Assembly (NCBI GenBank): GCA_964571275.1
Contig: CAZNCQ010000011.1
Location: forward strand, 1-64,000
Length of the DNA stretch: 64,000 nucleotides
From: an uncultured Myxococcales bacterium
Lineage (GTDB): Bacteria > Myxococcota_A > Polyangia > Fen-1088
Direction of reading: 5' to 3'
Shown here: one piece after another, positions 3,326-34,047 of the stretch
Layout: each line of letters starts with the position of its first letter
Position numbering within the stretch: position 1 is the first letter of the stretch
The notes under the pieces: generated by a model
What the model saw: the letters and a program-made list of their open reading frames with translations, nothing else
The model's database searches: none
Told to the model about the DNA's origin: nothing
Translations under genes and position numbers: made by a program

Positions 3326-3329
3326 GGCG

Positions 3330-9041: not shown

Positions 9042-9091
9042 ATGAAGAACGATCCTTTCTTCATCGTCGAGATCGCCATCGTCGAGATCGC
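9042..9091. promoter_or_regulatory. 8-bp perfect inverted repeat (ATGAAGAA-N7-TTCTTCAT) abutting a perfect 15-bp tandem duplication (CATCGTCGAGATCGC x2)
   Basis: Read directly in the divergent intergenic region between nfeD-flotillin (-) and the alpha/beta hydrolase gene (+). Confidence 0.4.
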
Positions 9092-9158
9092 CGATGCCAT
9101 GCGAGCGTTCCTCGCCGCGAGCGGCGTATCGCGCGGGCGGAAGTAGCGCGAGCTTCGG

Positions 9159-9860: not shown

Positions 9861-9916
9861 GCGGCGCGGTTGCGTGGTCACCGGCATGACAGTTTGAAAC
9901 GCCCGTGCTCGCGTCG

Positions 9917-9948
9917 CCTGTGGATATGTCCGGTTTTCCCTGTGGATA
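9917..9948. promoter_or_regulatory. direct repeat CCTGTGGATA x2, 22-bp spacing start to start, upstream of the FG-GAP/TSP3 gene
   Basis: Seen at 9917-9926 and 9939-9948 in the moderately AT-richer intergenic region; spacing equals two helical turns. Confidence 0.35.
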
Positions 9949-10107
9949 ATCTGCCGCCGCGCGCGATCGCGTTTGACAGGTCGGCAACGATTTCACGCAT
10001 CGCGCAATCGTCGCTCGACCCACCCTTCGAAAGGGTGTTAGTAGACCCTCCAAAATAGGATTGCATCCGCAGTCGCTCCGACGGCGAAGCAATCAAGGGG
10101 GGACGGT

Positions 10108-12129
10108 ATGACAACGGGGGAGTTTGGTACCAGCCAAACACACACGGCGGTTCCGACAAGGGTGTCCGGTATCGGGTCGCTGTCCGGTATTTGGCGACTC
10201 CATTGCCGGTTGATTGTTTCGTTCTTTGCCGCTCCGCTGGTCATTTGCGGCGCCACCTCCGGCGCGCGCGGGGCATCGGTTCCGTTTTTCAGCGAGCTCG
10301 CGCCGTCGGCGGTGACGATGGGTGGACAGTCGCTCAATCCGCCCGACACGGGCGTCGCCGAGTTCGGCGCGTCCGTCTCGTCGTACTCGGACGGGTTCAA
10401 CGACTACGTCGTCGTCGGTGCGCCCGGGCTCGGTGCGGGCCGCGCCTTTTACTTCGCCAAATCGACGTCGGTCCCGACGTTCGGCGCCGCCATCGAGCTG
10501 CGCCAGCCGAGCGGGGTCAGCGGCGACCGCTTCGGCGCCAGCGTCTTCGTCCAGGAAGGGACGATTCTGATCGGCGCGCCCAATCACGCCATGAACAATG
10601 GCTCCACCGGGAGCGTCTACGTCTTCGAGCAACCGAGGGACGCCAACGGGTTTCCCTTGATTGGCCCATTTCCCAACTACACGCCGAGCACATTCAGCAA
10701 CACGGCGACGCTGGGGTCCGTGTCGTCCGGAAACCCTCACTTCGGCCGTTCCGTCAGCTACGACTACCGGCTCAACATCGCCCTCCTGTGCAACGATTCC
10801 TTCTGCGAGTTCCGCGCGAAGTCCGGCGCGACCTGGGGCTTCGCCGCGCAAAGCCACCAGGGCCAGACCTTTCGGGGTAGCCAGGTGTTTCAGCAGAGCA
10901 TCACGCCCGGCTGGGGGTACTTCGTCACGCTGGGCCCGTCCAGCAACCTCGACTTTTACGAGTTCCAGCCGGTCGTCGACAGCAACGCCCAGTACATGTT
11001 TACCCAGTCTGTGGTCCCCGGCTCACTGATTGGCGGGGCCGGCGGGCAGGTTGATCGCCTCCTCGTTGGCATCTTGTCATCGTCCGGACACGGCTCCGTT
11101 GCGCAATTCACAAAGAACCTCTTTGGCGCGGTTCCGTTCACGCAGTGGACAAACAGCAATACGTTCACGTTTGCCAGCGCCGGACCGAATTTTGGCGCGG
11201 CCATCGCGCTGACCGGCGACGAGGTGCTCGTCACCGACCCACGCTCGGTCATCGGAACGGTTCACCGCCTCCAGGTCGATCGGCGCGGGAACGACGACAC
11301 CACCGACGACGTCTGGACCGAGACCGGGACGTTCGGCACGTTCGACGATCCCACCTCCAGCCTGACGGTCTCCGGTTTCGCGGATGCCGCCGTGGTCGGG
11401 TGGCCGGCCGGCAACAAGGCCTATGCCGTCGACCTGGCCAATCCCATCCCGACCAGCACCGTCGTCGATCCAGCGACGGGGGTGACCGTCACCGCGACGA
11501 CCATCGGTACCGGGGGCCATATCGCCGTGACGGCGCAACCCATGTGCTCGATGTTCCAGTCCCTGATTGACGTGCAGACTGGCACCGCTACCTGCGTCGA
11601 CATCACGACCAACGCCGAGCTTCTTGGTCTGGCCGAGATCTGCTTTCCCAATCCGTCGGGAAACCAGCCCGTCGTGCTTCGATGTCGGATGAAACCATCT
11701 TGCACCACCAATGAGAGGCCGGGCCCCGGGGGCTTTTGCTGTCGCTCGCTCACGACCGACGCGATCTCGTATCCCGGCTACATGTGCGTGAGCAGCGACG
11801 GGTTCTCCAGCTATGCGGTCGGGCAGGCGGCAGACAGCGACAACGATTTCATACCCAACATTAGCGATAACTGCCCCAACGTCGTTAACACCTTCCAGCA
11901 GGACAGCGACGGTGACCTGATCGGCGACGCCTGCGACAACTGCCCGGCGGTCGCCAACCAGGATCAGCTGGATTCGGACCACGATGGCATTGGTGACGCG
12001 TGCGACCCGACGCCCCTGCCGCCGGTAGCGGCGCCGGTGCCAGCGATCGGGGGCAACGGACTTTGGGCGCTGGCGGCGCTGTTGGGGACGCTGGGCGCGG
12101 GCGTGACACGGAGGAGACGCAGACGATGA
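10108..12129 (+). CDS. secreted FG-GAP repeat / thrombospondin type-3 (TSP3) calcium-binding repeat protein with C-terminal GlyGly/PEP-CTERM-like sorting signal
   Basis: Signal peptide; FG-GAP-like units ([15 protein letters not shown]; [20 protein letters not shown]); C-terminal DxDxDGxxDxCDNCP repeats ([36 protein letters not shown]); ends ...[29 protein letters not shown] (Gly-Gly, hydrophobic helix, Arg cluster). Confidence 0.7.
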
Positions 12130-13289
12130 TGAAGTCGGGTCAGTGGGTGTTCGTGCTGTGCGCGGCTTTGCTTTGCTCTTGTGACAATCGACACCTGGGC
12201 TTCGGTTCCGGAAGCTCGAACAGGCGAGGCGTGACGGAAGAACCGGACGCGGGCGTACTGACGGCCGCCCCGGATGCTGCGTCCGCGCCTGAGGTCGCGA
12301 GCGGCACCGACGCATCGAACGTGCCGCACGTCGATTCTGGCGGCAACTCGGATGTGGGCTATTCATTCGATGCGACCCCGGTATCGTGTGCCGCTCTGCC
12401 GGCGGGAATGTTCCCGTCAACCGACGTCACCTGCCAGCTGGTCGACCCGCGGGCCGACCGGGTTTGCGTCCCCGATCCATTCCACGATGGTCGAAAGTTC
12501 GTGGATTTCGTTGGTTGCATCCAGGGTGCGCCGGCGACGAAGGGGGCGGTTTGTGCGAATGGGATGTGTTGCCACGGGCTACTGACGTCATTCGTCACCA
12601 CACCCGGCTATGTCTGTGGGATCACCTCCGGCATGCAGATCGTCGCCTATGGCCAGGCCCTGGATACCGATCAGGATTTCGTCCCTGACTACTGGGACAA
12701 CTGTCCCTACGTCGCCAACACGTTCGGGCAAGGCGACGACGACGACGGCGACGGGATCGGCAACGCCTGCGACCCCTGTCCCGAAGTCCCCGGCGTGACC
12801 TGCGCCGATGCGGGACCGCACTCAGGGGCCTCGTGCGCGGACATTCCGGCCGAGATCTTCCCAGCCGGTAGCCTCACCTGCCAGCCGGTCGATACGCAGG
12901 CCGGCCTGGCCGCCAAGCCATTCTGCGTCCCCCCGATCGTCGGCGACGGTGGACTGCTCAAACTGGATTTCGTCGGCTGCAAGCGCGGCGCGCCTGCAAC
13001 GACGGAGGGCGCCTGCTCGAACGGGATCTGTTGCTACGCGCTACAAACGACCACGTACGCTGGCGCTCCGGGCGACGATTGCGCGTACCCGGGCGGCATG
13101 GAGGTCGTCGCCTACGGCAAGGCCCTGGACACCGATCAGGATTCCATCCCCGACTACTGGGACAACTGCCCCGACGTCGCCAACCCGCTTGGGCAGGCAG
13201 ACGACGACGACCTCGACGGCATCGGCAACGCCTGCGACCCCTGCCCACAGGTCTTCGGCGTCACTTGCGCCGACGCAGGCGCGCACTGA
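12126..13289 (+). CDS. TSP3-repeat lipoprotein with internal tandem duplication
   Basis: ATGA start/stop overlap with the upstream gene; lipobox [12 protein letters not shown]; two ~140-aa tandem copies, each Cys-rich and ending in [13 protein letters not shown]...[16 protein letters not shown]; paralogous to the C-terminus of the previous gene. Confidence 0.7.
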
Positions 13290-15108: not shown

Positions 15109-15245
15109 CTCGCGCCCATCGACGATCGCGCGCCCAATGAGCGAAAGGTCGATGACACTTGGTACGCGGGTCGTTCACGATCCTTGATCCAACCCATAGG
15201 CCCGTGCTATCGCGACCCGATGGGTGTGGATGGGTGAGCGAGCCG

Positions 15246-15290
15246 GTTGCGATCCTCGCGCGTTCGCCGGGAATAGCGCGCGTTCGCAAC
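15246..15290. promoter_or_regulatory. repeat cluster upstream of vgrG: 7-bp inverted repeat GTTGCGA/TCGCAAC bracketing two copies of GCGCGTTCGC
   Basis: Read in the 205-bp intergenic region 24 bp upstream of the vgrG ATG. Confidence 0.35.
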
Positions 15291-15313
15291 GTTGACGATC
15301 AAGGAACGACCAC

Positions 15314-17527
15314 ATGAGTCTGATCGGCCCTGTGACGGTGAGCCCCATTGGCGGGCATGACATGTACCTGCTCTCGATGAGCGGCGACGAGGAGCTGGGC
15401 AGGCTCTTCGAGTACAACCTGGAGCTCCTGAGCCCCGACCCGACGATCTCGCTCGCCGACGTGCTGGCCCAGAACGTCACGGTGACGCTCGAGCTGTCGG
15501 GCGCCAGCTTCCGGTATTTCAACGGCTACGTCAGTCGATTCTCCTTCGCGGGGACGTCGGGCGACCAGTGCGTCTACAAGGCGACGCTGCGCCCCTGGCT
15601 CTGGTTCCTGACCCGGACCTCCGACTGCCGCATCTTCAACCAGCGCTCGACGCCCGACGTGGTCAAGCGCGTCTTCCGCCACTACAGCCAGGCGCTGTTC
15701 GACGGGCCGCTGCCCGGGCACGCGTCGCGCGACTTCGTCGTCCAGTACCGCGAGACCGACTTCAACTTCGTGAGCCGGCTCATGGAAGAGGAAGGGATCT
15801 ACTACTACTTCCGCCACGAGCTCGGGAAACACACGCTGGTGTTCGCCGACTCGATCGGGGCGCACGACAAGTACCCGGGCCTGAGCATTCCCTATATGCC
15901 GCCGACCGACAGCGGACGGCGCCAGGGCGATCACTTCGATTCGTGGCGCGTGTCGCAGGAGATCCAGCCCGCGGCGTACGTCATGAAAGAGTACGACTTC
16001 AAGCGGCCGCGCGCCGACCTGCGCGCGGTCGTGAACCCGCAGGCCAACAAGACTCGCCACCTGATGGGCGAGTACTTCGACTACCCGGGCGGCTATCCCG
16101 AGCGCACCGACGGCGAGACGTTGGGCGGCATCCACCTCGACGAGCTCGGCGTCCACTACGAGACCGTGGAGACGACGGGGACGACGCGCGCGCTCAGCGT
16201 CGGGCAGACGTTCCGCGTGACCGACGTGCCGCGCCCGGATCAGAACCGCGAATACCTGGTCATGCGCGCGCACTACGAGCTGCACAGCCACGACATCACC
16301 ACCGGGACGACCGACGACCAGGAGATCTTCCAGGGCGCGTTCACGTTGATGGATTCGGGCAAGCCGTTCCGTCCCGCGCGCCACACGCCGCGGCCGGTGG
16401 TGCAGGGGCCGCAGACCGCTGTCGTGGTCGGCGACAAGAAGACCCAGCCCGACTCGAGCGAGATCGTCACCGACGAGCACGCGCGCGTGCGCGTGCGCTT
16501 CTTCTGGGAGCGCCTCGGCGGCGAACGCACCGACGAGCCGGACGATGAGGAGAAGCGCAACGAGGACATGACGACCTGGGTCCGCGTGTCGCAGGTCTGG
16601 GCCGGCGCGCAGTGGGGCGCAATCCACATCCCGCGCATCGGACAGGAGGTGATCGTCGACTTCCTCGAAGGCGATCCGGATCGCCCGATCGTCACCGGCC
16701 GCGTCTACAACGGCGACAACATGCCGCCGTATGCGCTCCCGCAGAACAAGACCCAGAGCGGTATCAAGAGCCGCAGCACCACCGGCGGCGGGCCGAGCAA
16801 CTTCAACGAGATCCGTTTCGAGGACAAGAAGGGCGGCGAAGAGCTGCACGTCCAGGCGGAGCGCGATCACTCGACGCTGGTCAAGCGCAACCAGTCGCTG
16901 AGCGTCGGCGGCGACCGCAGCGTCAGTGTCAGCGGAAACGAGACGGTCAGCGTCAGCGGCACGCGTTCGACGACGATCACCAAGAAGGAGACCGAGACCT
17001 TCAACGACGCGCGCGTGATGACGGTGGCGCAGACGGACGAGGTCACGATCACCGGCCACGCCACCGGCACCTACAACGGCGGCCGCACCGAGACGGTCAA
17101 GAGCGGCGACAGCCTGGAAGTGATGGGCTCGAACAAGACCGTCACCGTGCACGGCGAATACAACACCACCGCCGACACGCAGTTCCAGGTCGAGCAGGGC
17201 CCGAACAGCATCATGGTCAAGGACTCGATCACCGTTCACTCGACGACCGAGGTCAAGGTCACCAACGACAAGTGCACGGTGCATCTCAACGGCGGCTTGC
17301 TGTGCATCGACGCTGCAGACGAGATCAAGCTGACCTGCGGCGGCTCGACGATCTCGCTAGCCAAGGACGGGACGATCACGATCACCGGCGGCAAGCAGGT
17401 GACCACGACCGGTGGCGGCTCGGGCGTCGACCTGGTGGCGGCGGGCGCGACGATGTCCGGTACCAAGGCCACGGTCTCGGGCACGAGCACGACCGAAGTC
17501 ACCGGGGGGATCGTCAAGATCAACTGA
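15314..17527 (+). CDS. vgrG: type VI secretion spike protein VgrG (TssI)
   Basis: gp27-like N-terminal region (FEYNLELLS...YFNGYVSRFSF...YKATLRPWLWFLTRTSDCRIFNQ...FNFVSRLMEEEGIYYYF...YFDYPGGY); gp5 OB-fold (VSQVWAGAQWGAIHIPRIGQEVIVDFLEGDPDRPIVTGRVYNGDNMPPY); C-terminal beta-helix octapeptide-like repeats; no extension domain. Confidence 0.9.
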   Translation: MSLIGPVTVSPIGGHDMYLLSMSGDEELGRLFEYNLELLSPDPTISLADVLAQNVTVTLELSGASFRYFNGYVSRFSFAGTSGDQCVYKATLRPWLWFLTRTSDCRIFNQRSTPDVVKRVFRHYSQALFDGPLPGHASRDFVVQYRETDFNFVSRLMEEEGIYYYFRHELGKHTLVFADSIGAHDKYPGLSIPYMPPTDSGRRQGDHFDSWRVSQEIQPAAYVMKEYDFKRPRADLRAVVNPQANKTRHLMGEYFDYPGGYPERTDGETLGGIHLDELGVHYETVETTGTTRALSVGQTFRVTDVPRPDQNREYLVMRAHYELHSHDITTGTTDDQEIFQGAFTLMDSGKPFRPARHTPRPVVQGPQTAVVVGDKKTQPDSSEIVTDEHARVRVRFFWERLGGERTDEPDDEEKRNEDMTTWVRVSQVWAGAQWGAIHIPRIGQEVIVDFLEGDPDRPIVTGRVYNGDNMPPYALPQNKTQSGIKSRSTTGGGPSNFNEIRFEDKKGGEELHVQAERDHSTLVKRNQSLSVGGDRSVSVSGNETVSVSGTRSTTITKKETETFNDARVMTVAQTDEVTITGHATGTYNGGRTETVKSGDSLEVMGSNKTVTVHGEYNTTADTQFQVEQGPNSIMVKDSITVHSTTEVKVTNDKCTVHLNGGLLCIDAADEIKLTCGGSTISLAKDGTITITGGKQVTTTGGGSGVDLVAAGATMSGTKATVSGTSTTEVTGGIVKIN

Positions 17528-17547
17528 TGGGCGTGTAGCGCGGGTCG

Positions 17548-18993
17548 ATGGAAGCCATTGCGGTCCCTCTGCGGCGTCTTCACGAGGAGGCGAGCTGGTT
17601 CGCGCGCGCGGCGGAGATCAAGCTCCTGCACGTCGCTGCCGACGCGACGTTGCGGGGCGCGGCGATCAAGCTCCTGATGGGGCAGGAGTTCCACGCGGAC
17701 AATCGCGCGCTCTATTTCCGCTTCGACGATGAGGTCACCGGCCCGATGCGCGGCTGGCCCGCGCGCGCGGCGCGCCTGCGCGAGCAGTTCGCGGACAAGG
17801 CCGCGTCGCTGAAGCCGGCGGCGATCCACCTGGCGGCCATTCGCGACGTCTCGTCCTCGCCGGCGGGCGCGGCGGCGCGCTCGCCCGCGGCGGAGTTCGC
17901 GGCGCAGCTCTACGAGGCGCGGCGCGCGCTGGCGGCGCCGCTGACGCAGATCGTGGCGCTGCTCGCGCCGACGCGGGTCGAGGACCCGAAGATATTCGCC
18001 GCCGAGATGACGTCGTTGATTCGCGCGCGCGAGCTCGCCGACGTGCGCTGGATCGTGGTCGAGACCGACGGCGATGCCATTGGCCCGCTCGCGCAGGACC
18101 TCGGACGCGCCGCGCTCTCGTGCGCGTGCGTGATCGACAGCGCGGCCCAGAGCGATGCCTTGGCGGCGCAGGGCGCGGCGGCGGTCTCGGATCCGGTGAT
18201 CGTGCGCGCGCCGCCCGGCAACTGGCGCGCGCCCGGCGCCATGCCCGACGTCGAGCCGCCGCCGCACGTGGGTGCCCCGCCGGTGGCGACCGACGAGGAG
18301 CTGCGCGCCGCCGGCCTGTCGCCGGTGTTCGTCAAAGGCGGCGGCGATGCGCTCAAGCGCCTGGTGCTGGGCGGGGCGCTGGCCCTGCGCAACGGAAAGA
18401 ACGCGGACGCGGTCACGCTGCAGGCGCGCGCGGCCGCGCTCTGTGATGAGATGCAGATGCCCACCGAGGAGGTGCTGAACCTGCACGTCCTCGCCGGGTA
18501 TCTGATCGCAGGCTCGCAAGGCGCGCGCGCGCGCGAGGTCTACGTCCAGGCCGGAACGCTCGCGCGAACCCACGGGCTCAAAGATCTGGAGGCGCAGACC
18601 GAGCTGGCGCTCGGCATGCTGGAGGCGGTCGATCGCGCGCCCGCCAAGGCCGCGGCGCACTACGCCGCCGCGGGACGCCTGGCCGAGGATGCGAAGATCG
18701 ACGTCCTGGCGATCGAGGCCTGGCGAATGGCCGGCCAGCTGGCGCTGGAGAGCCGCCTCGAGACCTCGGCGGTCGAATGCTGGAAACGCGCGCTGGATCT
18801 GGCCGACGAGCTCGACCCCAAGCTCGCGCAGTCCACGAGCGCCGCCGAAATCGCGCGGGCGCTGGCCGCGGTCTACCGCAAGCGCGGGCTCGTCGCGCCG
18901 GCGAGCGCGCTGGAAGAACGCAGCGCGGAGCTGGAGCAAGGCACGCCTCCCACAGAGGAGGTCCCGCCCAGAACCGCTGGAAACACTGGCTGA
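17548..18993 (+). CDS. unclassified protein between vgrG and the PAAR-Rhs gene (candidate T6SS adaptor/chaperone)
   Basis: 481-aa Ala/Leu-rich, predicted alpha-helical, no signal peptide; starts 21 nt after vgrG; its stop overlaps the Rhs start (TGATG); does not match DUF4123, DUF1795 or DUF2169 as I remember them. Confidence 0.5.
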   Translation: MEAIAVPLRRLHEEASWFARAAEIKLLHVAADATLRGAAIKLLMGQEFHADNRALYFRFDDEVTGPMRGWPARAARLREQFADKAASLKPAAIHLAAIRDVSSSPAGAAARSPAAEFAAQLYEARRALAAPLTQIVALLAPTRVEDPKIFAAEMTSLIRARELADVRWIVVETDGDAIGPLAQDLGRAALSCACVIDSAAQSDALAAQGAAAVSDPVIVRAPPGNWRAPGAMPDVEPPPHVGAPPVATDEELRAAGLSPVFVKGGGDALKRLVLGGALALRNGKNADAVTLQARAAALCDEMQMPTEEVLNLHVLAGYLIAGSQGARAREVYVQAGTLARTHGLKDLEAQTELALGMLEAVDRAPAKAAAHYAAAGRLAEDAKIDVLAIEAWRMAGQLALESRLETSAVECWKRALDLADELDPKLAQSTSAAEIARALAAVYRKRGLVAPASALEERSAELEQGTPPTEEVPPRTAGNTG

Positions 18994-21900
18994 TGCTCGC
19001 CAGCACGTTCATGGACCTGGTGCTCGGGGTGGACATCCACTTCGAAATGGTCCCGATGCCGGCACCGGTCCCGACGCCGATCCCGAACCCGTTCGTCGGC
19101 ATGGTCTTCGATCCGGGCGGTTTGCTCGTCGGTCAGGTGATGAGCCTGACGATGGCGCTGGCCACTGGCAAGCCGCCGCTGGGACCGGTGCTGATCAACT
19201 CGATGCCGGCCACCACCGTCGGTACGAACGCAATCAACTCGCTCGGCGTGCCACACATCCTGATCCCGCCCGGCACGGCCTGGGCGCCGATGCCCAAGCT
19301 GCCGAAGCCGTCGTTCAAGGGGCCTCCGCCCGCGCCCGGCGCGCCGGTCAAACCCGAGGGCGACGCGATCAGCGTCTTCGGTTCGCAGACCGTCAACCTG
19401 ATGGGCACCAGCGCCGTGCGCATGGGCGACAAGTCGATGAGCTGCGGCGAGCCCGTGCGCCTGCCGTCGTCGACGGTGCTGGCGATTCCCAAGGGCATGC
19501 CGGTGATGATCGGCGGACCGCCGGCGATCTCGATCATGGACGCGGTCGGCGCTCTCCTGCGATCGAAGTGGGTCGCCGGCTACCTGCACGACATCTTGAG
19601 CCGCTTCAAGCCCGGTCGCTTGCGGAGCCTGATCAGCAAGGCGATCTGCTTCGTCACCGGGCACCCCGTCGACGTCGCGACGGGACGCGTGCTCACCGAC
19701 CAGGTCGACTGGCAGCTGCCCGGACCGCTGCCGCTGACGTTCGAGCGCAGCTACTCGTCGGCGTGGGCCAACCGCAACGGTCCGCTCGGCCACGGCTGGT
19801 CGCACAGCCTGGATCAAGCGGTCTGGGCGGAGCGCGGCCGCGTCGTCTATCTCGACGGCGAGGGGCGCGAGCTCGAGTTCGACACGTTCGCTTTTCCCGA
19901 CCACGTGCTGCCGGCCGGGGAGAGCGTCTACGAACCGATCACCCGCCTCACGCTGCGGGCGCTCGGCCAGCGTCGCTACGAGATCCACACGCACGACGGC
20001 ACCGCCCACGCGTTCGCGCCGGTCGAGGGCGCGACCGGCGAGCGCCGCTCCTGGTCGCGGCTCCTGCGCACGACGGCGCGCGCTGGCGCCGCGATCGCGC
20101 TCGAATACGATCGGCGCGGCGACCTCGCCTGGGTGCGCGATTCGGCCGGGCGTCAGATCGGGTTCGAGCACGACGCCGCCGGCCGGCTGAGCGCGGTCAA
20201 GCTACCGCATCCGACGGACGCCGGCTGGCAGGTGCACACTCGGTACGCTTACGACGCGCACGGAGACCTGGTGCAGGTCACTGACCCGCTCGGTGGGACC
20301 TGGCGCTTCGCCTACAAGCAGCACTTGCTGGTACAGGAGACCAACCGCAACGGCCTGTCGTTCTATTTCGCCTACGACGGCTTCGGAGAAGACGCGTATT
20401 GCGTCCGCACCTGGGGCGACGGCGGCATCTATGACCACATCATCGACTACGACAAGGTCGGCAAGGTCACCTGCGTGAGCGACAGCCTTGGCCGCACGAC
20501 GACCTACCGCATGAACGCCGTCGGGTGTGTCGTGAAGGTGACCGACGCGCTCGGCGGAGCGACATCCTACGAGTACGACGAGCGCACGCTGCGCAAGATC
20601 AAGGAGACCAGCGCCACCGGCGGGGAGACGCAGTGGAAGTACGACGACCGCGGCAACACCATCGAGATGACCGACCCGGGCGGCGCGGCGATCGCGGTGG
20701 CGTTCGACGAGCGCAACCTACCCGTGCGCGCCGTCGACGCCGTCAAGGGCGAGTGGACGTGGGGCTATGGCGACGGCGGCCGCCTGATCGGGCGGATCGA
20801 TCCCCTGGGCCGGCGCGTTCAGTTTCGCTGGGATCATCAAACCAAGCGGCTCGCGGCGATCACCGATCCCGCCGGTCACGAGTCGGCGCTCGGCTACGAC
20901 GCCCACGGAAACCTGACGTCGCTGACGGCGCCCGACGGTGCAGTGAGCGGCTGGCAGTACGACAACCTCGGGCGCTGTGTCGCGGCGATCGACGCGAACG
21001 GAAGCACGGAGCGGCGCGAGCACGATGCGCTCGGCCGGGTCGTGCGCGTCATCGAGCCCGACGGCAACGTGCGCGAGCTCTCGTACGACGGCGAGGGGAA
21101 CCTGATTGTCGCGCGCGACCGGCAGCACGACGTGCGCTTCACCTACCGCGGAATGGGCCGCCTGGCGTCGCGCCGCGAGGGCGAGACCACCGTCGCTCTC
21201 GACTACGACACCGAGGAGCGCCTGGTTGCGATCGCGAACGAGCACGGTCACGTTTACCGCTTCGAGCTGGGCGCCACCGGCCAGGTCGACGTCGAGCGCG
21301 GGTTCGACGGCATCCGGCGCCAGTACGCGCGCGACAAGGCGGGACGGGTCACCAAGATCTACCGCCCCGACGGCAGCGAGACCGTCTACCGCTACGACGA
21401 CGCCGGTCACGTCGCCGCCATCCTGCACAGCACCGGCGCCAAGGAAACATACGCCCACCGACCGGACGGTCAGCTGATCCAAGCCACCAACGATGCAGCG
21501 ACGGTGAACCTGGAACGCGACCTGCTCGGGCGCGTGCTGCGAGAGACGGTCGGCGACGATTGGGTCGCCTCGGAATTCGACGCCACCGGGCGGCGCGCCG
21601 GCGTCCGCTCGTCGAAGGGACTCGAGCAACGCATCCAGCGCGACGCCACCGGCCAGGCCGTGCGCGTGACGGCGGCGGTCAAGCACCAGGGCGACGACGC
21701 CGGGGGCTCGTGGCACGACGCCTGGCAAGCGCGGATCGTGCGCGACGCGCTCGGCGCTGAGATCGAGCGCGATCTACCCGGCGGCGTACAAAGCCGCTGG
21801 CAAAGAGACAAGCTCGGCCGCCCGGTGCAACAACGGATCTCCAGCGCGGCCGGGTTCCTGCGCGCCGTTCAATACACCTGGGACGTCAACGACCGCCTGC

Positions 21901-23261
21901 GCATGATGGTCGACGCGACCCGCGGCCCGATCCGCTACGAGCACGACACCTTCGGCAACCTCTCGGCGGCCGTGTACGAAGACGGCCGCGTCGACCTGCG
22001 CATGCCCGACGCAGTCGGGAACCTGTTCCGCAGCGCGGACCGCGGCGACCGCAAGTACGGTCCCGCCGGCCAGCTTCTGGAGTCGCGCGAGCCCGACGGC
22101 CGCGTCGTCGCCTACGAATACGACACCGAGGGAAACCTCGCGAAGAAGATGGAGCGCCGTGACACGCGCGGCGACGCGCGCGTCTGGACCTATCACTGGA
22201 ACGCCAGCGGCACGCTCGCGCGGGTCGTCCGCCCCGACGGCGAGGCGGTCACGTTCACCTACGACGCGCTGGCGCGCCGTCTTTCGAAGTCATTCCGCGG
22301 GAAGACCACGCGCTGGATCTGGGATGGCGACGTGCCGCTCCACGAGTGGGTCGAGCGCTCGGCGCCGGTCCGGGATGTCGCGCCGGCTCCGCCGTCGGCC
22401 GCTTTCTTCGCCGACGAGCGCGCGGCACGCCGGCGCAAGGCCGAGCTGGCGGCGCGTCCGTCGGTTGGCCCTCCGGGTTGGGCCGCGTCGGCTGCAAACG
22501 AGCCCGGAACCCGCGAGCGTCCGGTCACCTGGCTCTTCGATCCCGAGAGCTTCGCACCGATGGCCAAGCTCATCGGCGATGACGAATACGCGATCGTCAC
22601 GGATCACCTCGGCACGCCGTCGGCGATGTACGACGCCGCAGGCGACGAGGTCTGGTCCGCAACCTTCGACGTCTATGGCGGCCTGCGCGAGGTCCAGGGC
22701 ACGCGCGGCGCCTGCCCCTTCCGCTGGCCCGGCCAATACGAAGACGAGGAGACCGGCCTCTACTACAACCGGTTCAGGTACTACGATCCGCAGAGCGGCG
22801 AGTACGTCGCCAGCGATCCGATCGGTCTGTCAGCTGGCCTTCGCCTGTTCGGATACGTCGTCGATCCGAACAGTTGGTCCGATCCGCTCGGTCTCGCCGC
22901 GGGCTGCGGCAAGGACATCGCGCTCGGGAAGGACATTCCCGGCAGCCACGGGCTCAAGGGCCTGGCCACGCAGACGGGCTCCTCGTGGTGGCGCAACTGG
23001 GCGCGCGACGGGATTACCCGGCGAACCGTGTCGAACCGGTTTGGCCGCGCGTTTCATCAGGCGGCGGACCGGGCCGAGCACATTCACTTTTCACTCGACG
23101 GCATTCCCGATGTCGGGGAGGCTGTTCGGCAAGGCGCGGCGGGGTTCACGCCTGGAAACTTCACCCACGCCGAGTTGAATCACATTGTCAACAACCCGGA
23201 CCTGCTCTCGAAGACAACGTTCTATCGTGACGGCGTGCCCCAGACCGGTTCAATATTCTGA
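18993..23261 (+). CDS. rhs: PAAR-like (DUF4150-type) N-terminal domain - Rhs/YD-repeat polymorphic toxin
   Basis: Start at MLASTFMDLVLGVDIHFEMVPMPAPVPTPIPNPF (PAAR-like); many YD repeats (YAYDAHGDLVQVTDPLGG, YDDRGNTIEMTDPGG, YDAHGNLTSL, YDGEGNLIV...); Rhs core end PFRWPGQYEDEETGLYYNRFRYYDPQSGEYVASDPIGL...SWSDPLGL (DPxGL autoproteolysis motif at 22881-22895), followed by a 121-aa C-terminal domain. Confidence 0.9.
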   Translation: MLASTFMDLVLGVDIHFEMVPMPAPVPTPIPNPFVGMVFDPGGLLVGQVMSLTMALATGKPPLGPVLINSMPATTVGTNAINSLGVPHILIPPGTAWAPMPKLPKPSFKGPPPAPGAPVKPEGDAISVFGSQTVNLMGTSAVRMGDKSMSCGEPVRLPSSTVLAIPKGMPVMIGGPPAISIMDAVGALLRSKWVAGYLHDILSRFKPGRLRSLISKAICFVTGHPVDVATGRVLTDQVDWQLPGPLPLTFERSYSSAWANRNGPLGHGWSHSLDQAVWAERGRVVYLDGEGRELEFDTFAFPDHVLPAGESVYEPITRLTLRALGQRRYEIHTHDGTAHAFAPVEGATGERRSWSRLLRTTARAGAAIALEYDRRGDLAWVRDSAGRQIGFEHDAAGRLSAVKLPHPTDAGWQVHTRYAYDAHGDLVQVTDPLGGTWRFAYKQHLLVQETNRNGLSFYFAYDGFGEDAYCVRTWGDGGIYDHIIDYDKVGKVTCVSDSLGRTTTYRMNAVGCVVKVTDALGGATSYEYDERTLRKIKETSATGGETQWKYDDRGNTIEMTDPGGAAIAVAFDERNLPVRAVDAVKGEWTWGYGDGGRLIGRIDPLGRRVQFRWDHQTKRLAAITDPAGHESALGYDAHGNLTSLTAPDGAVSGWQYDNLGRCVAAIDANGSTERREHDALGRVVRVIEPDGNVRELSYDGEGNLIVARDRQHDVRFTYRGMGRLASRREGETTVALDYDTEERLVAIANEHGHVYRFELGATGQVDVERGFDGIRRQYARDKAGRVTKIYRPDGSETVYRYDDAGHVAAILHSTGAKETYAHRPDGQLIQATNDAATVNLERDLLGRVLRETVGDDWVASEFDATGRRAGVRSSKGLEQRIQRDATGQAVRVTAAVKHQGDDAGGSWHDAWQARIVRDALGAEIERDLPGGVQSRWQRDKLGRPVQQRISSAAGFLRAVQYTWDVNDRLRMMVDATRGPIRYEHDTFGNLSAAVYEDGRVDLRMPDAVGNLFRSADRGDRKYGPAGQLLESREPDGRVVAYEYDTEGNLAKKMERRDTRGDARVWTYHWNASGTLARVVRPDGEAVTFTYDALARRLSKSFRGKTTRWIWDGDVPLHEWVERSAPVRDVAPAPPSAAFFADERAARRRKAELAARPSVGPPGWAASAANEPGTRERPVTWLFDPESFAPMAKLIGDDEYAIVTDHLGTPSAMYDAAGDEVWSATFDVYGGLREVQGTRGACPFRWPGQYEDEETGLYYNRFRYYDPQSGEYVASDPIGLSAGLRLFGYVVDPNSWSDPLGLAAGCGKDIALGKDIPGSHGLKGLATQTGSSWWRNWARDGITRRTVSNRFGRAFHQAADRAEHIHFSLDGIPDVGEAVRQGAAGFTPGNFTHAELNHIVNNPDLLSKTTFYRDGVPQTGSIF
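22896..23261 (+). other. C-terminal toxin domain of the Rhs protein (unassigned family)
   Basis: 121 aa after DPLGL: AAGCGKDIALGKDIPGSHGLKGLATQTGSSWWRNWARDGITRRTVSNRFGRAFHQAADRAEHIHFSLDGIPDVGEAVRQGAAGFTPGNFTHAELNHIVNNPDLLSKTTFYRDGVPQTGSIF; no motif I recognise. Confidence 0.6.
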
Positions 23262-23270
23262 GGAGTTGCT

Positions 23271-23627
23271 TTGTCGAACACGTCCCACGACCCATTCTTC
23301 GAACGGACGTTGAAGTCGGGCGCGACGTTCCTGGCGCGCTGGTCCGGCGCGGATGCACAGCTGTGGGAGCTGACGGCATCGCACCGGACCCTCAAGGTGC
23401 TGCTCACGCGCCCCGGATCGACGCAGAACCTGCGGCAAAACTTGCAGATCGGTTGCCTCGATCCGATCCGGATCGAGGCGCCGGTCCGATGGACGAACGC
23501 TTCGCTCTCGCTTCAAATCACGTCGTTACCAGGCGACGACACCGGTTTCGTGCTGAGTGACGCCAACGGAGCCGTCTCGATCCTCTGCGGCTCGATCGAG
23601 TTCGCGGAGAACGTCAAGGCTCCGTAG
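23271..23627 (+). CDS. putative cognate immunity protein for the Rhs C-terminal toxin (118 aa)
   Basis: Starts with TTG 10 nt after the rhs stop with GGAG 5 nt upstream; small cytoplasmic protein; position directly 3' of the polymorphic toxin gene is the basis. Confidence 0.5.
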   Translation: MSNTSHDPFFERTLKSGATFLARWSGADAQLWELTASHRTLKVLLTRPGSTQNLRQNLQIGCLDPIRIEAPVRWTNASLSLQITSLPGDDTGFVLSDANGAVSILCGSIEFAENVKAP

Positions 23628-23654
23628 TATTGCGGCGGCGGCTCGATCCCGAGC

Positions 23655-25643
23655 TCAGCGCGGCACCTTCAGCCGGTGCGTGTGGCAGGGCTCCGATTCG
23701 TCGGCGTGGCCGGGATTCAAGCGGCGCCAGCGGTTGCGCAGCTCCTGGTCGGTTTCGACCGCGACCCGATGCGCGGCGTACTCGCCCTGCGCGACTTCGG
23801 CCTCGCCGGCGCGGCCGAGCTCGCCGAGCGCGAGCGCGCGCTGATAGGAACCGTCTTCGGACTCCGGATCGATCACCAGGATCGCGTCCGCGGCCGCCAG
23901 CGCGCCGGGCGCGTCGCCGTTCAGGCCGCGCACACGCGCCAGTAAACCGAGCCCGCCGCGATCGTCGGGTAGGCGCCGCGCGAGGCGTTCCGCGAACGAC
24001 AGCGCGGGCCCGAACCGGTAGGCGTCGGTGAGCGCGCGCGCCGCGAGCCAGAGCGGCGCCGGATGGTTGGGCGCCACCGCCAGCGCTCGTTGCGCGAGCG
24101 CCAGCACGTCGTCGGTGCGGCCCTGCCGGACCGCCAGCCGCGCCAGGCCGAGCAGCGGCTCGACGCGCGTCGGCCACGCGGCGCGCGCGGCCTCGAGCGG
24201 CGCGCGTGCTTCGTCGGCGTGGTCGGCGGTCGCGTCGGCCAGCGCCAGGCCCCAATCGAGCAGCACCGCCGGATCGCTCGGCAGCGGCGCACCCGCAACG
24301 ATGCGGTCGCCGGCGATCTCGACGACGGGCAGATCCAGGCAACGCCGGCGCGGACCGGCGGGGAGATCCGCGCAGGCGAGACGCGCGTAGGCCGGCGAGA
24401 ACTTGCGGTAGTTGAGCCGCGCCTCGACGCGCGCCGTCCCTTCTGGCACCTCGAAGCGCACCACCTGCGGATCCGACGGTGCCAGCGCGGCGTCGAACGC
24501 GACGCCGCGCATGTGCTGGGGATCCCGGCGCAAGAGCGGGCGGCCGTCGGCGTCGACGGGCTGCGCGCGCACGAGGTGCGTGTCGGCGTCGAGCGCGCCG
24601 TCGCGCCCGCGCGCGCCCGATCGGCCCATCACGCGTCCGCTGGCATCGAATGCGGTGACCTCGAGCCAGACTTCGTTCGAATCCATCGTGCCGCCGGGAA
24701 AACGGTGGCCGACGCCGCGCGCGCGCAGCAAGGCATCGATCCGCCGCGGCCCCGACCAGATCAGCGCCAGCGACGCGCGACCCCGCAGGTTGCGCGCGAC
24801 ACGATCCTCTTGCTCGCCGTCGCCGCGCAGGTGCGGGAGCGCGGTATTCGCACCCAGAAAGCGGTGCGACCGGATCATGCCGTTCTTCGCGGCCGCGTCA
24901 CCCTCGGTCGCTGGCTCGAGCGGCATGTGGCAATCCTGGCAGGTCTGGCTGGCGGCGGGGCGATACACCGATCCGGCGCCGTTGCCGGCGACCGCGCTCA
25001 CGTGCCAGGCGTCGTAGTCGTCCTGGCCGCGCAACCAGCGATCGGCCGTGACGTCGGCGCCGAGCCCCACCTTGTGGCAAGTCGCGCAGAAGATCGCCTG
25101 GTTCATGAGCGGCGGGCGGACGCGCGCGCCATGCACGCCGGCGGCGGTGGGCACCGGCCGCAGATCGACGAGGTATCGCCCGTTGCCCTCGCGATCGACG
25201 TGGGTCACCGAATGGCAGATCAGGCAGGTCACGCCCGCCTGCGCGGCCCGCGTGCCGCGGAAGAGGACGCCCGGCTGATCCATCGCGCCGCTCGCGACCA
25301 GCAGCGGCTCGTGGCAGTTGCCGCAGAAGCGCGACGCGACCGCGCCTTTTTCCTGGCGAAATTGATCGGTCGCCGCGCGGTAATAGGGATTGTTGAACGA
25401 CGAGAATCGATGCGCCGACGCCGACCACTGCTTGGCCACGTCGGCGTGGCACCCGACGCAATCGGCGACACCGACGGGCGCGCCGGCGTAGAAGCCGCGC
25501 CGCGCGACCTCGCGCGCGATCGCGGCGTCCTCGGGACCGTCGCTGCCCGCAATCAACGACAACGGCGCGCCGCCGTGGGCCTCGAAGCGCGGCAACGAAG
25601 CGTCGGCCCACGCCGCTGACGACGCCATCAACGAACAAACCAT
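23655..25643 (-). CDS. multiheme c-type cytochrome (5 CxxCH) with C-terminal TPR domain
   Basis: CVGCH, CGNCH, CLICH, CATCH, CQDCH heme-binding motifs; signal peptide at MVCSLMASSAAWA; TPR-like C-terminal third; start is approximate (could be up to 25859). Confidence 0.75.
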   Translation of the reverse strand: MVCSLMASSAAWADASLPRFEAHGGAPLSLIAGSDGPEDAAIAREVARRGFYAGAPVGVADCVGCHADVAKQWSASAHRFSSFNNPYYRAATDQFRQEKGAVASRFCGNCHEPLLVASGAMDQPGVLFRGTRAAQAGVTCLICHSVTHVDREGNGRYLVDLRPVPTAAGVHGARVRPPLMNQAIFCATCHKVGLGADVTADRWLRGQDDYDAWHVSAVAGNGAGSVYRPAASQTCQDCHMPLEPATEGDAAAKNGMIRSHRFLGANTALPHLRGDGEQEDRVARNLRGRASLALIWSGPRRIDALLRARGVGHRFPGGTMDSNEVWLEVTAFDASGRVMGRSGARGRDGALDADTHLVRAQPVDADGRPLLRRDPQHMRGVAFDAALAPSDPQVVRFEVPEGTARVEARLNYRKFSPAYARLACADLPAGPRRRCLDLPVVEIAGDRIVAGAPLPSDPAVLLDWGLALADATADHADEARAPLEAARAAWPTRVEPLLGLARLAVRQGRTDDVLALAQRALAVAPNHPAPLWLAARALTDAYRFGPALSFAERLARRLPDDRGGLGLLARVRGLNGDAPGALAAADAILVIDPESEDGSYQRALALGELGRAGEAEVAQGEYAAHRVAVETDQELRNRWRRLNPGHADESEPCHTHRLKVPR

Positions 25644-25666
25644 CGCGGCAACCAGGCTCGCCGGTT

Positions 25667-27196
25667 TCACGGCTTGCGCTCCCGCCGCGGCGGCGGCTGC
25701 CCCGGAAGCCCGAGCAGCGGCACCGGCGACCGCACGTCGCGTTTCAAGGACACCGTGCCGCGCGGAGCGGTGGCCAGCCCCTTGGCGGCCGTCGGCGGCG
25801 CCTTGCCGAACGGATTGTCGGGCGGGCCGCCCCAACGACCGTAGATCGGCTCCTTGCACGCCACCGGACGTTCCCAGTAGTGGCGGATGATGTAGCGCGC
25901 CTGGAAATTGTTGGTGCCGCCGTCGATGATCTGCGCGCCCGCGTCGTCGTTGGCGCCGTCCCAGCTGGCGCGGCCACCCATGACCGGTTTGGCCTCGCGG
26001 AAGATCAAGTCCTCGGACAGCGTCTCCGCGCTGTAGCGCGTGTGCAGCCGCGTGAGCACCCAGCCGGCTCCCATGCTGCCGAAGAACGGCATGCGCCGCG
26101 CAGGCGCGCCGGCCGCGGCGCCGGACTTACCGGCACCGCCCGTTGCCGGCGGCGGGACCGCGATGGCCGCACCCTCCAGCGCGTCCAGTCCCAGCGTGGC
26201 CAGGTCGGACGCCGTGAGCGGTGGCGTCGGACACGGGTCGCACGACGTGGTCTGCCACGCGTACTCGGTGACCACAGCCTTGCGTCCCATCTTCTCGATC
26301 GTGGCGTCGAAGAGCGTCGCATAGAACGCGGGGAAGCCCTGGCGAACGGCGTCGGCGACCTCGAGGTTCGTGGGCGTGAACACGTTCGGGTAGTTCGCGA
26401 CCTCGAATCGCGACGACGGGTGCAGCACGTACACGATCAGGTCCTGCTTGCCGGTGGCGTTGAGCAGCCCGAGACGCACCGGCAAGCGCAGCTCGTTGGC
26501 GTCGAAGGCGAAACGCAGCGGCGACAGGTGGACCACACCGGCCGCGTCGCGACTCACCTTCTTGACGTCGACCTTGGCGACGAAGAACTTCGATTTGTCG
26601 CGCACGTACGGCGCCAGCGCCGCCGCCGCGCCCGCGGGGATGTGGTACTTCTCGCGGTGCAGCCAGGTCTCGAGCCCCGACGACTCGGTCGCCGACAGGA
26701 TCACGATCTGGTATTCGCCGGCGACGAACTGCGCCTCGATCTTCACGCCCAGGCCGCCGGCGACGCCCACCTCCCCTCTCCGACTCATGCCCCTGCCGCC
26801 CATGGCGCTCATGGGCGCCATGGCGCGCATGGGCGGCGTGCAGGGATCCTGCTCCCAGTACTCGACCAGCCGCGGCGCCGACAGTGAATCGATGCGGTCG
26901 AACACGTCCGTGGGCAGCGTCTTCACGTCTTCCTTGTGCAGCACGACGGGAACCGGCACGACCATCGCGAAGTCCTCGGGCGGTCCCTTGTAGTCATTGG
27001 ACATCGTCATCACCGTGCGGTTGCCCTTGCGCATCAGCACGACCTGGGACGCGTCGTTGGTCAGCTTGGCGTCGCTGCCGGCGACGAAGAACCCGCAGAA
27101 CGCCAGCGCGCGCGGCGAACCCGCGATGACGCCGATCAACCCGAACAAACCAACCAACGCGAACGGCTGCGAACGACACCACCGAGATCGGATCAT
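25667..27196 (-). CDS. secreted conserved protein of unknown function (DUF2330-like as far as I can recall), paralog A
   Basis: GGAGGAGG RBS, signal peptide then FCGFFVAGSDAKLTNDASQVVLMRKGNRTVMTMSNDYKGPPEDFAMVVPVPVVLHKEDV...; about 75% identical over the core to the adjacent gene. Confidence 0.65.
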   Translation of the reverse strand: MIRSRWCRSQPFALVGLFGLIGVIAGSPRALAFCGFFVAGSDAKLTNDASQVVLMRKGNRTVMTMSNDYKGPPEDFAMVVPVPVVLHKEDVKTLPTDVFDRIDSLSAPRLVEYWEQDPCTPPMRAMAPMSAMGGRGMSRRGEVGVAGGLGVKIEAQFVAGEYQIVILSATESSGLETWLHREKYHIPAGAAAALAPYVRDKSKFFVAKVDVKKVSRDAAGVVHLSPLRFAFDANELRLPVRLGLLNATGKQDLIVYVLHPSSRFEVANYPNVFTPTNLEVADAVRQGFPAFYATLFDATIEKMGRKAVVTEYAWQTTSCDPCPTPPLTASDLATLGLDALEGAAIAVPPPATGGAGKSGAAAGAPARRMPFFGSMGAGWVLTRLHTRYSAETLSEDLIFREAKPVMGGRASWDGANDDAGAQIIDGGTNNFQARYIIRHYWERPVACKEPIYGRWGGPPDNPFGKAPPTAAKGLATAPRGTVSLKRDVRSPVPLLGLPGQPPPRRERKP

Positions 27197-27224
27197 GCGG
27201 ACCTCCTCCTGACGCTGGCGTGAG

Positions 27225-28727
27225 TCACTTTGCCCGGCGCCGCGGCGCCACCGGACTCTTGAGCCCGAGCAACGGCACGGGCGAATGCACTTCCTTGGCG
27301 AGCGAGATCGTCCCGCGCGCCGCGGCCGCCAACCCCTTGGCCGGCGACACCGGCGCGGCGCTGAACGGAGCATCGGCCGGGCCGCCCCACATCCCGCGGC
27401 GCGGCTTTTCGCAGGCGACCGGCTTCGTCCAGTAGTGGCGGATGATGTAGCGCGCCTGAAAATTGTTGGGGCCGCTGGTTCCCGTCGCGATGGTGTCCTG
27501 GTCAATCCCGCCGCCGCCGCGTCCACCGACCACCGGCGCGGCCTCGCGGAAGATCAGATCCTCCGACAGCGTCTCCGGGCTATAGCGCGTGTGCAGCCGC
27601 GTCAGCACCCAGCTGGGCGGCCTGCCGATGAATCGCGGCGGCGCGGGCGGGCGAGCCCCGCGCGCCGTCACGGCTGGCTTGTTCGTGCCCGTTCCGATCG
27701 GCGGCGGAGCCTCGGGCGCCGCGCCGATCCCTTCGAGCACGTCGAGCCCGAGCGTCGACAGATCGTCGAGCGACAGCGGCTGCACCGGGCAAGGATCGCA
27801 CGACGTCGTCTGCCAGGCGTACTCGGTCAGCACCGCGCGCTTCCCCATCTTCTCGATGACCGCATCGAACAGCTCGGCGTAGAACGCCGGGAACGCCCCG
27901 CGCACACCGTCGCCCACTTCGAGGTTGGTCGGGATGAACGCGTTCGTGTAGTTCGCGACCTCGAACCGCGACGACGGGTGAACGACGTAGACGATCAGGT
28001 CCTGCTTGCCGCCGGCGTTGAGCAACCCGAGGCGCACCGGCAGTCGCAGCTCGTTGGCGTCGTAGCTGAACCGTAACGGCGACAATTGCACCACGCCGCT
28101 GGCGTCGCGGCGGACCTTGCGGATGTCGACCCTCGCGACGAAGAACTTCGATTTGTCACGTACGTACGGCGCCATCGCCGCGGCCGCGCCCGCGGGAATG
28201 CTGTAGCGGTTCTCGCGCAACCAGGTCTCGAGCCCTGACGACTCGGTCGCCGAGAGGATCACCACCTCGTACTCGCCGGTCACGAAGCGCGCCTCGACCT
28301 TGACCCCGAGGTCCTTGCGGCGTCTCGGGGACGACGCGCCCTCGGCGGACATCAGTTCTTCGGCCTCGACCCCGTAAGACACGCGCGCGCAGGGATCCTG
28401 CTCCCAGTATTCGACCAGCCGCGGCGCCGACAAGGAGTCGACGTGGTCGAACACCTCGGCCGGCAACGTGCGTACATCTTCCTTGTGCAGCACCACCGGC
28501 ACCGGCACCACCATCGCGAAACCCTGCGGCGGCCCTTGATAGTTGTTGGACATCGTCATCACCGTGCGGTTCCCCTTGCGCATCAGCACGACCTGCGACG
28601 CGTTGTTGGTCAGCTTGGCGTCGCTGCCGGCGACGAAGAACCCGCAGAACGCGCGGGCTGGCGCGGCGGGCAGCGCGACCACCGCGAGGGCCGCCGAGAC
28701 GCCCAGCGCGAGCGCCCAGCGCTGCAT
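27225..28727 (-). CDS. secreted conserved protein of unknown function (DUF2330-like), paralog B
   Basis: Start at MQRWALALGVSAALAVVALPAAPARA then FCGFFVAGSDAKLTNNASQVVLMRKGNRTVMTMSNNYQGPPQGFAMVVPVPVVLHKEDV...; tandem duplicate of the downstream gene. Confidence 0.65.
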   Translation of the reverse strand: MQRWALALGVSAALAVVALPAAPARAFCGFFVAGSDAKLTNNASQVVLMRKGNRTVMTMSNNYQGPPQGFAMVVPVPVVLHKEDVRTLPAEVFDHVDSLSAPRLVEYWEQDPCARVSYGVEAEELMSAEGASSPRRRKDLGVKVEARFVTGEYEVVILSATESSGLETWLRENRYSIPAGAAAAMAPYVRDKSKFFVARVDIRKVRRDASGVVQLSPLRFSYDANELRLPVRLGLLNAGGKQDLIVYVVHPSSRFEVANYTNAFIPTNLEVGDGVRGAFPAFYAELFDAVIEKMGKRAVLTEYAWQTTSCDPCPVQPLSLDDLSTLGLDVLEGIGAAPEAPPPIGTGTNKPAVTARGARPPAPPRFIGRPPSWVLTRLHTRYSPETLSEDLIFREAAPVVGGRGGGGIDQDTIATGTSGPNNFQARYIIRHYWTKPVACEKPRRGMWGGPADAPFSAAPVSPAKGLAAAARGTISLAKEVHSPVPLLGLKSPVAPRRRAK

Positions 28728-28919
28728 TCGGAAACAGGATCGGCATCGGACCATGGCAAGCCTCCTCGGTTTTGGGGTTCCCACGTCCGGCAAACGCAGC
28801 TCGGCCAAAAAAGATCTCGCGCGTCGCACAATAACGCCACCTGCGCGTGAACTCCACGCCGTCGCCGCCGGGCAGACCGCGATTTCAGTTTTGGCGCACC
28901 CGGCCGATGAACCGGGCCT

Positions 28920-34022: not shown

Positions 34023-34047
34023 TACGGGTAGTCTTCGACTCGCTTCC

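Follow-up and report, generated by a model that had tools for sequence, protein, structure and literature searches.

Why should a gene for a type VI secretion system (T6SS) spike stand in line with a toxin gene in a stretch of DNA that carries no T6SS core gene, and what does the unclassified gene between the two encode? These questions are raised by a string of four genes in the window, the whole 64,000-nucleotide stretch analysed here (positions 1 to 64,000 of contig CAZNCQ010000011.1, GenBank assembly GCA_964571275.1), which comes from an uncultured soil bacterium of the Polyangia (Myxococcota). At a probability of about 0.72, we read the region as an auxiliary ('orphan') T6SS effector module. 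A first-pass annotation, made from the DNA letters, had proposed a string of VgrG, candidate adaptor, PAAR-like Rhs toxin and immunity protein in a window devoid of core genes, and the evidence presented below supports that proposal. The string and the stretch that precedes it are laid out as follows.

15109 to 15313, + strand: upstream intergenic stretch of 205 nt, which probably holds the promoter
15314 to 17527, + strand: vgrG, 737 aa
17548 to 18993, + strand: unclassified helper gene, 481 aa
18993 to 23261, + strand: rhs, 1,422 aa, with a start codon that overlaps the preceding stop
23271 to 23627, + strand: candidate immunity gene, 118 aa, with a TTG start

The four open reading frames (ORFs) are co-directional and tightly coupled, span 15314–23627 on the + strand and, as first claimed, read through without an internal stop. 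The same models for the 737-, 481- and 1,422-aa proteins were called independently, by a metagenome gene finder, on an identical contig (ENA ERZ27245402) in a second assembly. The coupling described in the first-pass annotation was borne out at two junctions: the helper stop and the rhs start overlap in a TGATG at 18991–18995, and a GGAG at 23262–23265 lies 5 nt before the TTG at 23271, which is itself 10 nt past the end of the rhs stop codon. The gap between vgrG and the helper gene is 20 nt rather than the 21 nt originally given. Position 15109, previously taken as the start of the module, is merely the first base past a YceI-like gene; vgrG begins at 15314 (+ strand), with an AAGGA Shine–Dalgarno-like element about 9 nt 5′ of its ATG. 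A scan of all intergenic gaps for σ70 promoters and intrinsic terminators, which excludes myxobacterial promoter types, found none. The flanks are ordinary, as had been noted, with a YceI-like protein on one side and a multihaem cytochrome with tetratricopeptide repeats (TPRs) on the other, and the GC content of the region (0.64–0.73) is like that of the window (0.635–0.751, 1-kb bins).

The 737-aa protein is identified from its sequence as a VgrG/TssI spike, with a predicted gp27-like hub, gp5 OB fold and β-helix. It scores 566 bits against TIGR03361 (cutoff 186), matches Phage_GPD at 5.5e-90 and also matches Phage_base_V and Gp5_trimer_C. The β-helix extends to the last residue, with no fused C-terminal effector.

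The 1,422-aa protein is assigned to the T6SS Rhs polymorphic toxins by sequence features that include a YD/RHS shell, a core motif and a variable tip. Along the gene, its domains were mapped as follows.

18993 to 19532, + strand: PAAR-like N-terminal domain, residues 1–180, divergent and with proline-rich insertions
19659 to 19880, + strand: DUF6531, residues 223–296 (PF20148, 1.6e-26)
19881 to 22592, + strand: YD/RHS-repeat shell (RHS_repeat, 1.2e-75, 10 stretches; YD_repeat_2x; TEN_YD-shell)
22593 to 22895, + strand: RHS-associated core (PF03527; TIGR03696, 72 bits against a cutoff of 32.5)
22896 to 23261, + strand: C-terminal toxin domain, residues 1302–1422, of an undescribed polymorphic-toxin family

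The closest relatives in the Protein Data Bank (PDB), headed by RhsA 7q97 (1.7e-80) and followed by 8h8a, 8qja and 8uy4, include Tse15, Tre23 and Tse5; each of them is a T6SS Rhs effector. By analogy with such solved effectors, DUF6531 may form an N-terminal plug. The sequence PNSWSDPLGL, which fits the autoproteolysis motif PxxxxDPxGL, closes the RHS core and ends at residue 1301.

The head of the protein was assessed with 12 homologous N-termini. Nine of the 12 match PAAR_motif below threshold (best E = 5e-4), and a profile of the 12 homologues has the Vibrio cholerae PAAR protein 4jiv_D as its top PDB match (E = 0.005). The N-termini share invariant Asp, His, Gly, Pro and Cys positions, and their N.MPA..GT and GSSAVRMGD segments resemble PAAR motifs. 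The label 'PAAR-like' used in the first-pass annotation is thus weakly backed: the profile match speaks for it, and the sub-threshold PAAR_motif score of the window protein itself (given below) speaks against it. Because the MLASTF..D N-terminus is conserved in the 12 homologues, the rhs start codon could be fixed. A longer Rhs starting from the ATG at 18777 (1,494 aa) was rejected, given that the homologues start at MLASTF, that the independent caller chose 1,422 aa and that the extension overlaps the helper gene out of frame. An effector of the prePAAR/Eag type was also rejected: the N-terminus, MLASTFMDLVLGVDIH, lacks the AAR of the AARxxDxxxH motif, and the window holds no DUF1795 gene. 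The Gly/Ala-rich residues 41–62 were considered as a helper-shielded transmembrane helix and dismissed (maximum KD-19 of 1.58, below 1.6; prePAAR motif absent).

Past the DPxGL motif, the tips of homologous loci are unrelated to one another, except in two Polyangium fumosum paralogues, while the N-termini and shells are conserved. These differences among homologous loci confirm the polymorphism of the toxin. No Pfam or NCBIfam match to the window tip was found at E ≤ 10. Its homologues fall into 30 clusters of 46–74% identity, many of them short fragments, and in some the domain comes after a Hint-type (..LVHN) or an Rhs (..DPxG) end. The occurrence of the domain after both kinds of end marks it as a shuffled polymorphic-toxin tip. 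Among the invariant residues are TRR, FGRA and, within FT(N/H)AEL, a single Glu, which is Glu1394 in the window (FTHAEL; alignment A2, position 103) and is unchanged across 28 sequences.

To what activity might this tip correspond? In an AlphaFold2 (AF2) model it forms a small flavodoxin-like α/β domain (predicted local distance difference test (pLDDT) 87; predicted template modelling score 0.80). Foldseek ranks 9ro8 first (E = 0.067, probability 0.72) and DNPH1 and TIR domains next, with none at E ≤ 0.001; a profile of the tip alignment searched against PDB sequences returned only CheY, at E > 1. The Pantoea toxin 9ro8 has been described as homologous to human CD38 in both structure and function (PMC12605009), and NAD(P)+ is depleted by related ADP-ribosyl cyclase toxins of bacteria (PMC12356396). 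On the basis of the weak fold likeness to TIR, NDT and ADP-ribosyl cyclase enzymes, we propose, with low-to-moderate confidence, that the tip is a putative N-glycosidase with NAD(P)+ or a nucleotide as its substrate. The probability of another activity on the flavodoxin-like scaffold, such as RNase or nuclease activity, nucleotide binding or a signalling-type function, falls only slightly short of one half. Such an activity would agree with the scatter of the weak fold matches over flavodoxin-like GTPases, CheY-like receivers and sugar kinases, and the Arg-rich invariant residues (TRR, FGRA) would also suit the binding of nucleic acid or phosphate; yet the top ranks of two independent methods cluster on TIR, SEFIR, SARM1, NDT, DNPH1 and 9ro8, and the single invariant Glu is present. 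In the TIR/NDT/ADP-ribosyl cyclase group, the characteristic catalytic residue is one invariant Glu.

The small gene downstream of rhs had been taken for an immunity gene, and its occurrence elsewhere speaks for this. In three other loci (L025, L026 and L027), a toxin-domain homologue is immediately followed by a homologue of the 118-aa protein (51% and 34% identity). This is the signature expected of a cognate immunity protein, and it supports that assignment. In Pfam and NCBIfam at E ≤ 10, the protein has only non-significant matches to Inh (0.13) and Tal_Pri (0.27). At 4712–5441 of L026, from a Candidatus Poribacteria metagenome-assembled genome (MAG), and in L027, a free-standing toxin homologue precedes an immunity homologue, each of 115 aa; the pair sits beside groEL and lacks Rhs, Hint or any other delivery domain. 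An orphan cassette is one possibility, and a toxin–antitoxin-like use of the same pair is another.

We then turn to the 481-aa helper protein, which the first-pass annotation had left unclassified and which indeed has no match in Pfam or NCBIfam even at E ≤ 10. Its AF2 model, computed with 42 sequences, has a pLDDT of 90.9 and contains two domains.

17548 to 18168, + strand: N-terminal α/β domain, residues 1–207, the family signature
18292 to 18939, + strand: C-terminal TPR domain, residues 249–464, with about five helical hairpins

In the model, the N-terminal domain alternates helices with five strands and is joined by a Pro-rich linker to the TPR domain, which is kinesin-light-chain-like and built of tandem helix–turn–helix hairpins that form a superhelix. 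TPR domains are typical protein-binding scaffolds. A profile of the N-terminal domain searched against PDB sequences gave only noise (E of about 1). None of the 42 family members matches DUF4123, DUF1795 or DUF2169 at E ≤ 1, weak TPR_12 and SNAP matches being the only ones, and no toxin-like family was detected in the helper.

A word-indexed search returned 56 clusters at 90% identity, labelled 'hypothetical' or 'TPR repeat protein', the named members of which come from Polyangia MAGs. With a profile of the 207-residue N-terminal domain, 405 clusters at 50% identity were found, 275 of them at E ≤ 1e-10. The family domain is N-terminal in 149 of the 150 listed members, most of which are 450–500 aa long; in one member, a VgrG C-terminal gp5 domain precedes it, either as a fusion or by read-through. 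Members with an annotation or a genome source are essentially from Myxococcota, and the 405-cluster library carries no taxonomy. By these sequence comparisons, the helper founds an undescribed family of α/β plus TPR architecture, mostly in Myxococcota. Our literature search found no description of a TPR-type T6SS adaptor or of a myxobacterial vgrG–adaptor–rhs arrangement, although its coverage was incomplete and it is weak evidence of novelty.

A scan of one genome per species yielded 18 helper loci, and the window proteins were then compared by tblastn with all fetched loci. The order vgrG, helper, rhs, with a homologous PAAR-like N-terminus on the Rhs, recurs in L007, L009–L013, L015–L017, L019, L020, L022 and L023. 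Adjacency is kept in two further arrangements: in L014 the helper precedes rhs and vgrG is divergent, and in L008 vgrG and the helper gene are accompanied by a convergent rhs. The carriers are Polyangia MAGs, Polyangium fumosum (two loci), Polyangium jinanense, Hyalangium versicolor and one Acidobacteriota MAG. Across 11 loci, the identity of the helper to the window copy and that of the Rhs N-terminus to its window counterpart are strongly correlated (Spearman 0.95), a value to which shared phylogeny contributes; such covariation is expected of a co-inherited pair. In L023, tssJ, tssK, tssL and tssM lie about 2–7 kb upstream of the vgrG–helper–rhs trio, and this proximity ties the helper family to the T6SS.

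More distant arrangements were also found. In L002, a Polyangia metagenome contig, a 417-aa remote helper paralogue stands between the second vgrG and a free-standing PAAR gene, which is followed by rhs; the paralogue aligns with the helper across both domains (hhalign E = 2e-5). In L024, a helper homologue is followed by rhs with no vgrG upstream. Two of the loci carry additional Rhs sequences. Past the first rhs of L023 (15641–21031), two family-less genes of 324 and 94 aa precede a second full-length DUF6531-Rhs (1,361 aa), so that tandem Rhs effectors adjoin a T6SS core cluster. Downstream of the main rhs of L016 (16344–21411; Polyangium fumosum DSM 14668) lie several partial Rhs-core fragments. 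They have the look of orphan rhs C-terminal cassettes lined up in an array, for which the window has no counterpart.

That the gene order is conserved in 12 or more loci supports the guess of the first-pass annotation that the 481-aa gene encodes an adaptor. On the best reading of its position and fold, the helper would be an adaptor or chaperone that loads the PAAR-headed Rhs onto the cognate VgrG. The module could then work as follows. As a trimer, VgrG would supply the spike to a T6SS that has its core genes elsewhere, and the Rhs would cap this spike through its divergent PAAR-like N-terminus, carrying the C-terminal toxin inside the YD-repeat shell until autoproteolysis at the DPLGL motif frees it. 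In the cytoplasm, the helper would recognize or stabilize the PAAR-like Rhs N-terminus and load it onto VgrG, taking the place of the DUF4123, DUF1795 or DUF2169 adaptors of other phyla. The tip would most likely act as an N-glycosidase on NAD(P)+ or a nucleotide, and the 118-aa immunity protein would neutralize it in the producer. A stronger proposal, to which we give somewhat less than even odds, is that the helper represents a new class of T6SS adaptor, a loader of Rhs heads, and that the tip and its partner represent a new TIR/NDT-like glycosidase toxin–immunity family. That this adaptor class is largely confined to Myxococcota, co-evolves with the divergent PAAR-like Rhs head and is needed to load it is an equally tentative part of the proposal.

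Is the module a stable resident of its chromosomal site? Two syntenic relatives, L001/L004 and L005, share flanks with the window on both sides of the module; in L001, the synteny takes in an FG-GAP/TSP3 protein, a TPR protein, YceI, the cytochrome, two DUF2330 genes, PBP and SerA. In L001/L004, vgrG (93% aa identity) and the helper gene (84%) are intact, and rhs and the immunity gene are absent. Compared with the syntenic L001, dN/dS is 0.10 for vgrG and 0.23 for the helper gene, the latter value indicating that the helper is under purifying selection. In place of rhs and the immunity gene (window 18994–23660), both relatives carry a phosphopantetheinyl-transferase-like ORF (L001 11402–12304; L005 about 11130–12000) with the motif GSI[ST]HT...G[VI]D[IV]ER...FSAKEAFYKC. 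In the public annotation of L001, this stretch has been absorbed into a cytochrome call that is too long, at 959 aa, and L005 carries an added CbiD-like gene beside the ORF.

In L005, vgrG and the helper gene (9083–11126) are deletion remnants: vgrG lacks its first ~256 codons and its C-terminus and abuts helper codon 58, and the helper gene has an internal 131-nt deletion besides. This suggests decay of the module in a lineage without rhs, or possibly errors in assembly of the MAG. By tblastx or tblastn, neither relative showed any trace of rhs or the immunity gene. The first-pass description of an old, chromosomally fixed island therefore does not hold for the module as a whole, as both relatives are without rhs and the immunity gene and one of the pairs is decaying. 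Because the relatives keep only the pair at this site, vgrG and the helper gene are resident and rhs and the immunity gene variable. The family-wide association with rhs favours loss in the relatives over gain in the window.

Several of these observations weigh against an effector module loaded by the helper. On the window Rhs N-terminus, PAAR_motif (PF05488) scores 16.8 bits (E = 0.008), and its gathering score is 27. The adaptor role is predicted from gene order and fold, and pairs of vgrG and helper genes without an adjacent rhs occur in L001/L004 and as the first pair of L002; the helper may serve VgrG or a distant cargo, not the neighbouring Rhs. Finally, as the first-pass annotation had stated, no T6SS core gene was found in the 64-kb window. 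For this survey, 43 further ORFs were picked by length and third-position GC, which left a few short gaps without a candidate, and a Pfam scan detected none of the TssA–M, Hcp or ClpV families among them.

The pairs that lack rhs allow a different assignment of the helper, as an accessory dedicated to VgrG or as a secreted cargo or co-effector, with the Rhs an interchangeable passenger that docks unaided through its PAAR-like domain. We consider this unlikely. It would account for the intact pairs in L001/L004 and L002, for the retention of the pair and not of rhs in relatives at the same site, and for purifying selection on the helper (dN/dS of 0.23) measured against the rhs-less L001. However, the strong covariation of the helper with the Rhs N-terminal domain, the position of rhs as the immediately next gene in most loci, and L024, in which a helper homologue is followed by rhs with no vgrG upstream, all argue against this assignment. 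So do the lack of an immunity-like small gene alongside the pair without rhs and the TPR scaffold, which belongs to binding modules rather than toxins.

The module might instead be a non-functional relic, drifting to loss as in L005 in a genome without a working T6SS. The absence of core genes within 64 kb, the L005 remnants of vgrG and the helper gene, and the absence of rhs and the immunity gene from both relatives would fit such a relic, which we nevertheless regard as very improbable. The four frames are intact, with coupled starts; dN/dS is low for vgrG (0.10) and the helper gene (0.23); the catalytic-core motifs of the Rhs are preserved; and the same gene set is present on a second assembly. 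Orphan vgrG–rhs islands are common, and a distant core cluster that serves them is the normal T6SS arrangement. In Myxococcus xanthus, a single cluster of 14 genes encodes the T6SS apparatus (PMC10433427). An auxiliary effector module, probably served in the source genome by a T6SS encoded elsewhere, is the reading we retain.

How does the module compare with characterized systems? In order and logic, it resembles the Proteobacterial clusters of Serratia marcescens (Rhs1/Rhs2 with EagR) and Pseudomonas protegens (RhsA with EagR1, 7q97), with which it shares a spike, a helper, an Rhs cage headed by a PAAR or PAAR-like domain, a polymorphic tip released at DPxGL, and immunity. Unlike in the Eag systems, the helper is not of the DUF1795/Eag type (none of the 42 family members matches), and the Rhs has neither the prePAAR motif AARxxDxxxH nor a clear transmembrane segment, its PAAR-like domain being highly divergent. 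By sequence, the module thus differs from the Proteobacterial types in its helper, its PAAR-like head and its toxin–immunity pair.

Like the DUF4123 (Tap-1/TEC), DUF1795 (Eag) and DUF2169 adaptors, the helper is encoded between vgrG and the effector gene, is translationally coupled, lacks toxin or immunity features and has a proposed role in loading the effector onto VgrG. In contrast to these adaptors, it consists of an α/β domain plus TPRs, has no sequence match to them and, among members with an annotation or a genome source, is essentially restricted to Myxococcota. The remote paralogue of L002 occupies the same slot, between vgrG and a PAAR-bearing gene. Unlike in the window, however, the PAAR protein of L002 is separate (323 aa) and passes the Pfam PAAR_motif threshold, the Rhs starts at DUF6531 and the tip is Ntox46. 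The tip of the window Rhs, for its part, may resemble SARM1 TIR and the Pantoea ananatis T6SS ADP-ribosyl cyclase toxin 9ro8 (PMC12605009), in being predicted as a small flavodoxin-like α/β domain at the end of a polymorphic toxin, with one invariant glutamate. It differs from TIR, NDT and ADP-ribosyl cyclase toxins in having no detectable sequence similarity to them and in being shorter, at about 105 residues.

Elsewhere in the window, tandem DUF2330 paralogues (25667–27553 and 27225–29420, both − strand) lie beside the multihaem cytochrome/TPR gene (23655–25859, − strand), and this trio is conserved in L001 and L005. Two adjacent genes for secreted FG-GAP and thrombospondin type-3 proteins with common Cys-rich modules (10045–12129 and 11997–13289, both + strand) are conserved in L001. 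A pectate lyase (33904–35715, + strand), a GH5 cellulase (39860–42004, − strand), a GH28 polygalacturonase (51498–53858, − strand) and a Cys-rich repeat protein (38366–39856, + strand) make up a cluster of secreted plant-polysaccharide enzymes, which suggests a plant-biomass-degrading lifestyle. The gene at 1754–3469 (− strand) encodes a homologue of the eukaryotic lipase maturation factor (LMF1, 4e-61; LMF1_C, 8.5e-39), a family usually discussed in animals. T6SS clusters are σ54-regulated in several bacteria; a σ54-dependent response regulator of the NtrC type is encoded at 46228–47829 (− strand), 23 kb from the module, with no link to it shown.

The module itself is unsurprising, and its value lies in three uncharacterized parts that come with testable predictions. 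The helper family, with about 400 clusters at 50% identity and no Pfam or NCBIfam model, appears to fill the adaptor role in Myxococcota, in which the loading of T6SS cargo is poorly known; adaptors also serve well as markers in the search for T6SS effectors. The toxin and the immunity protein both belong to undescribed domain families. As Polyangium fumosum, Polyangium jinanense and Hyalangium versicolor are culturable carriers, bench tests are possible. The three related genomes, in which a single site has its cargo present, has it absent or holds a decaying module, provide a natural series for the study of effector turnover.

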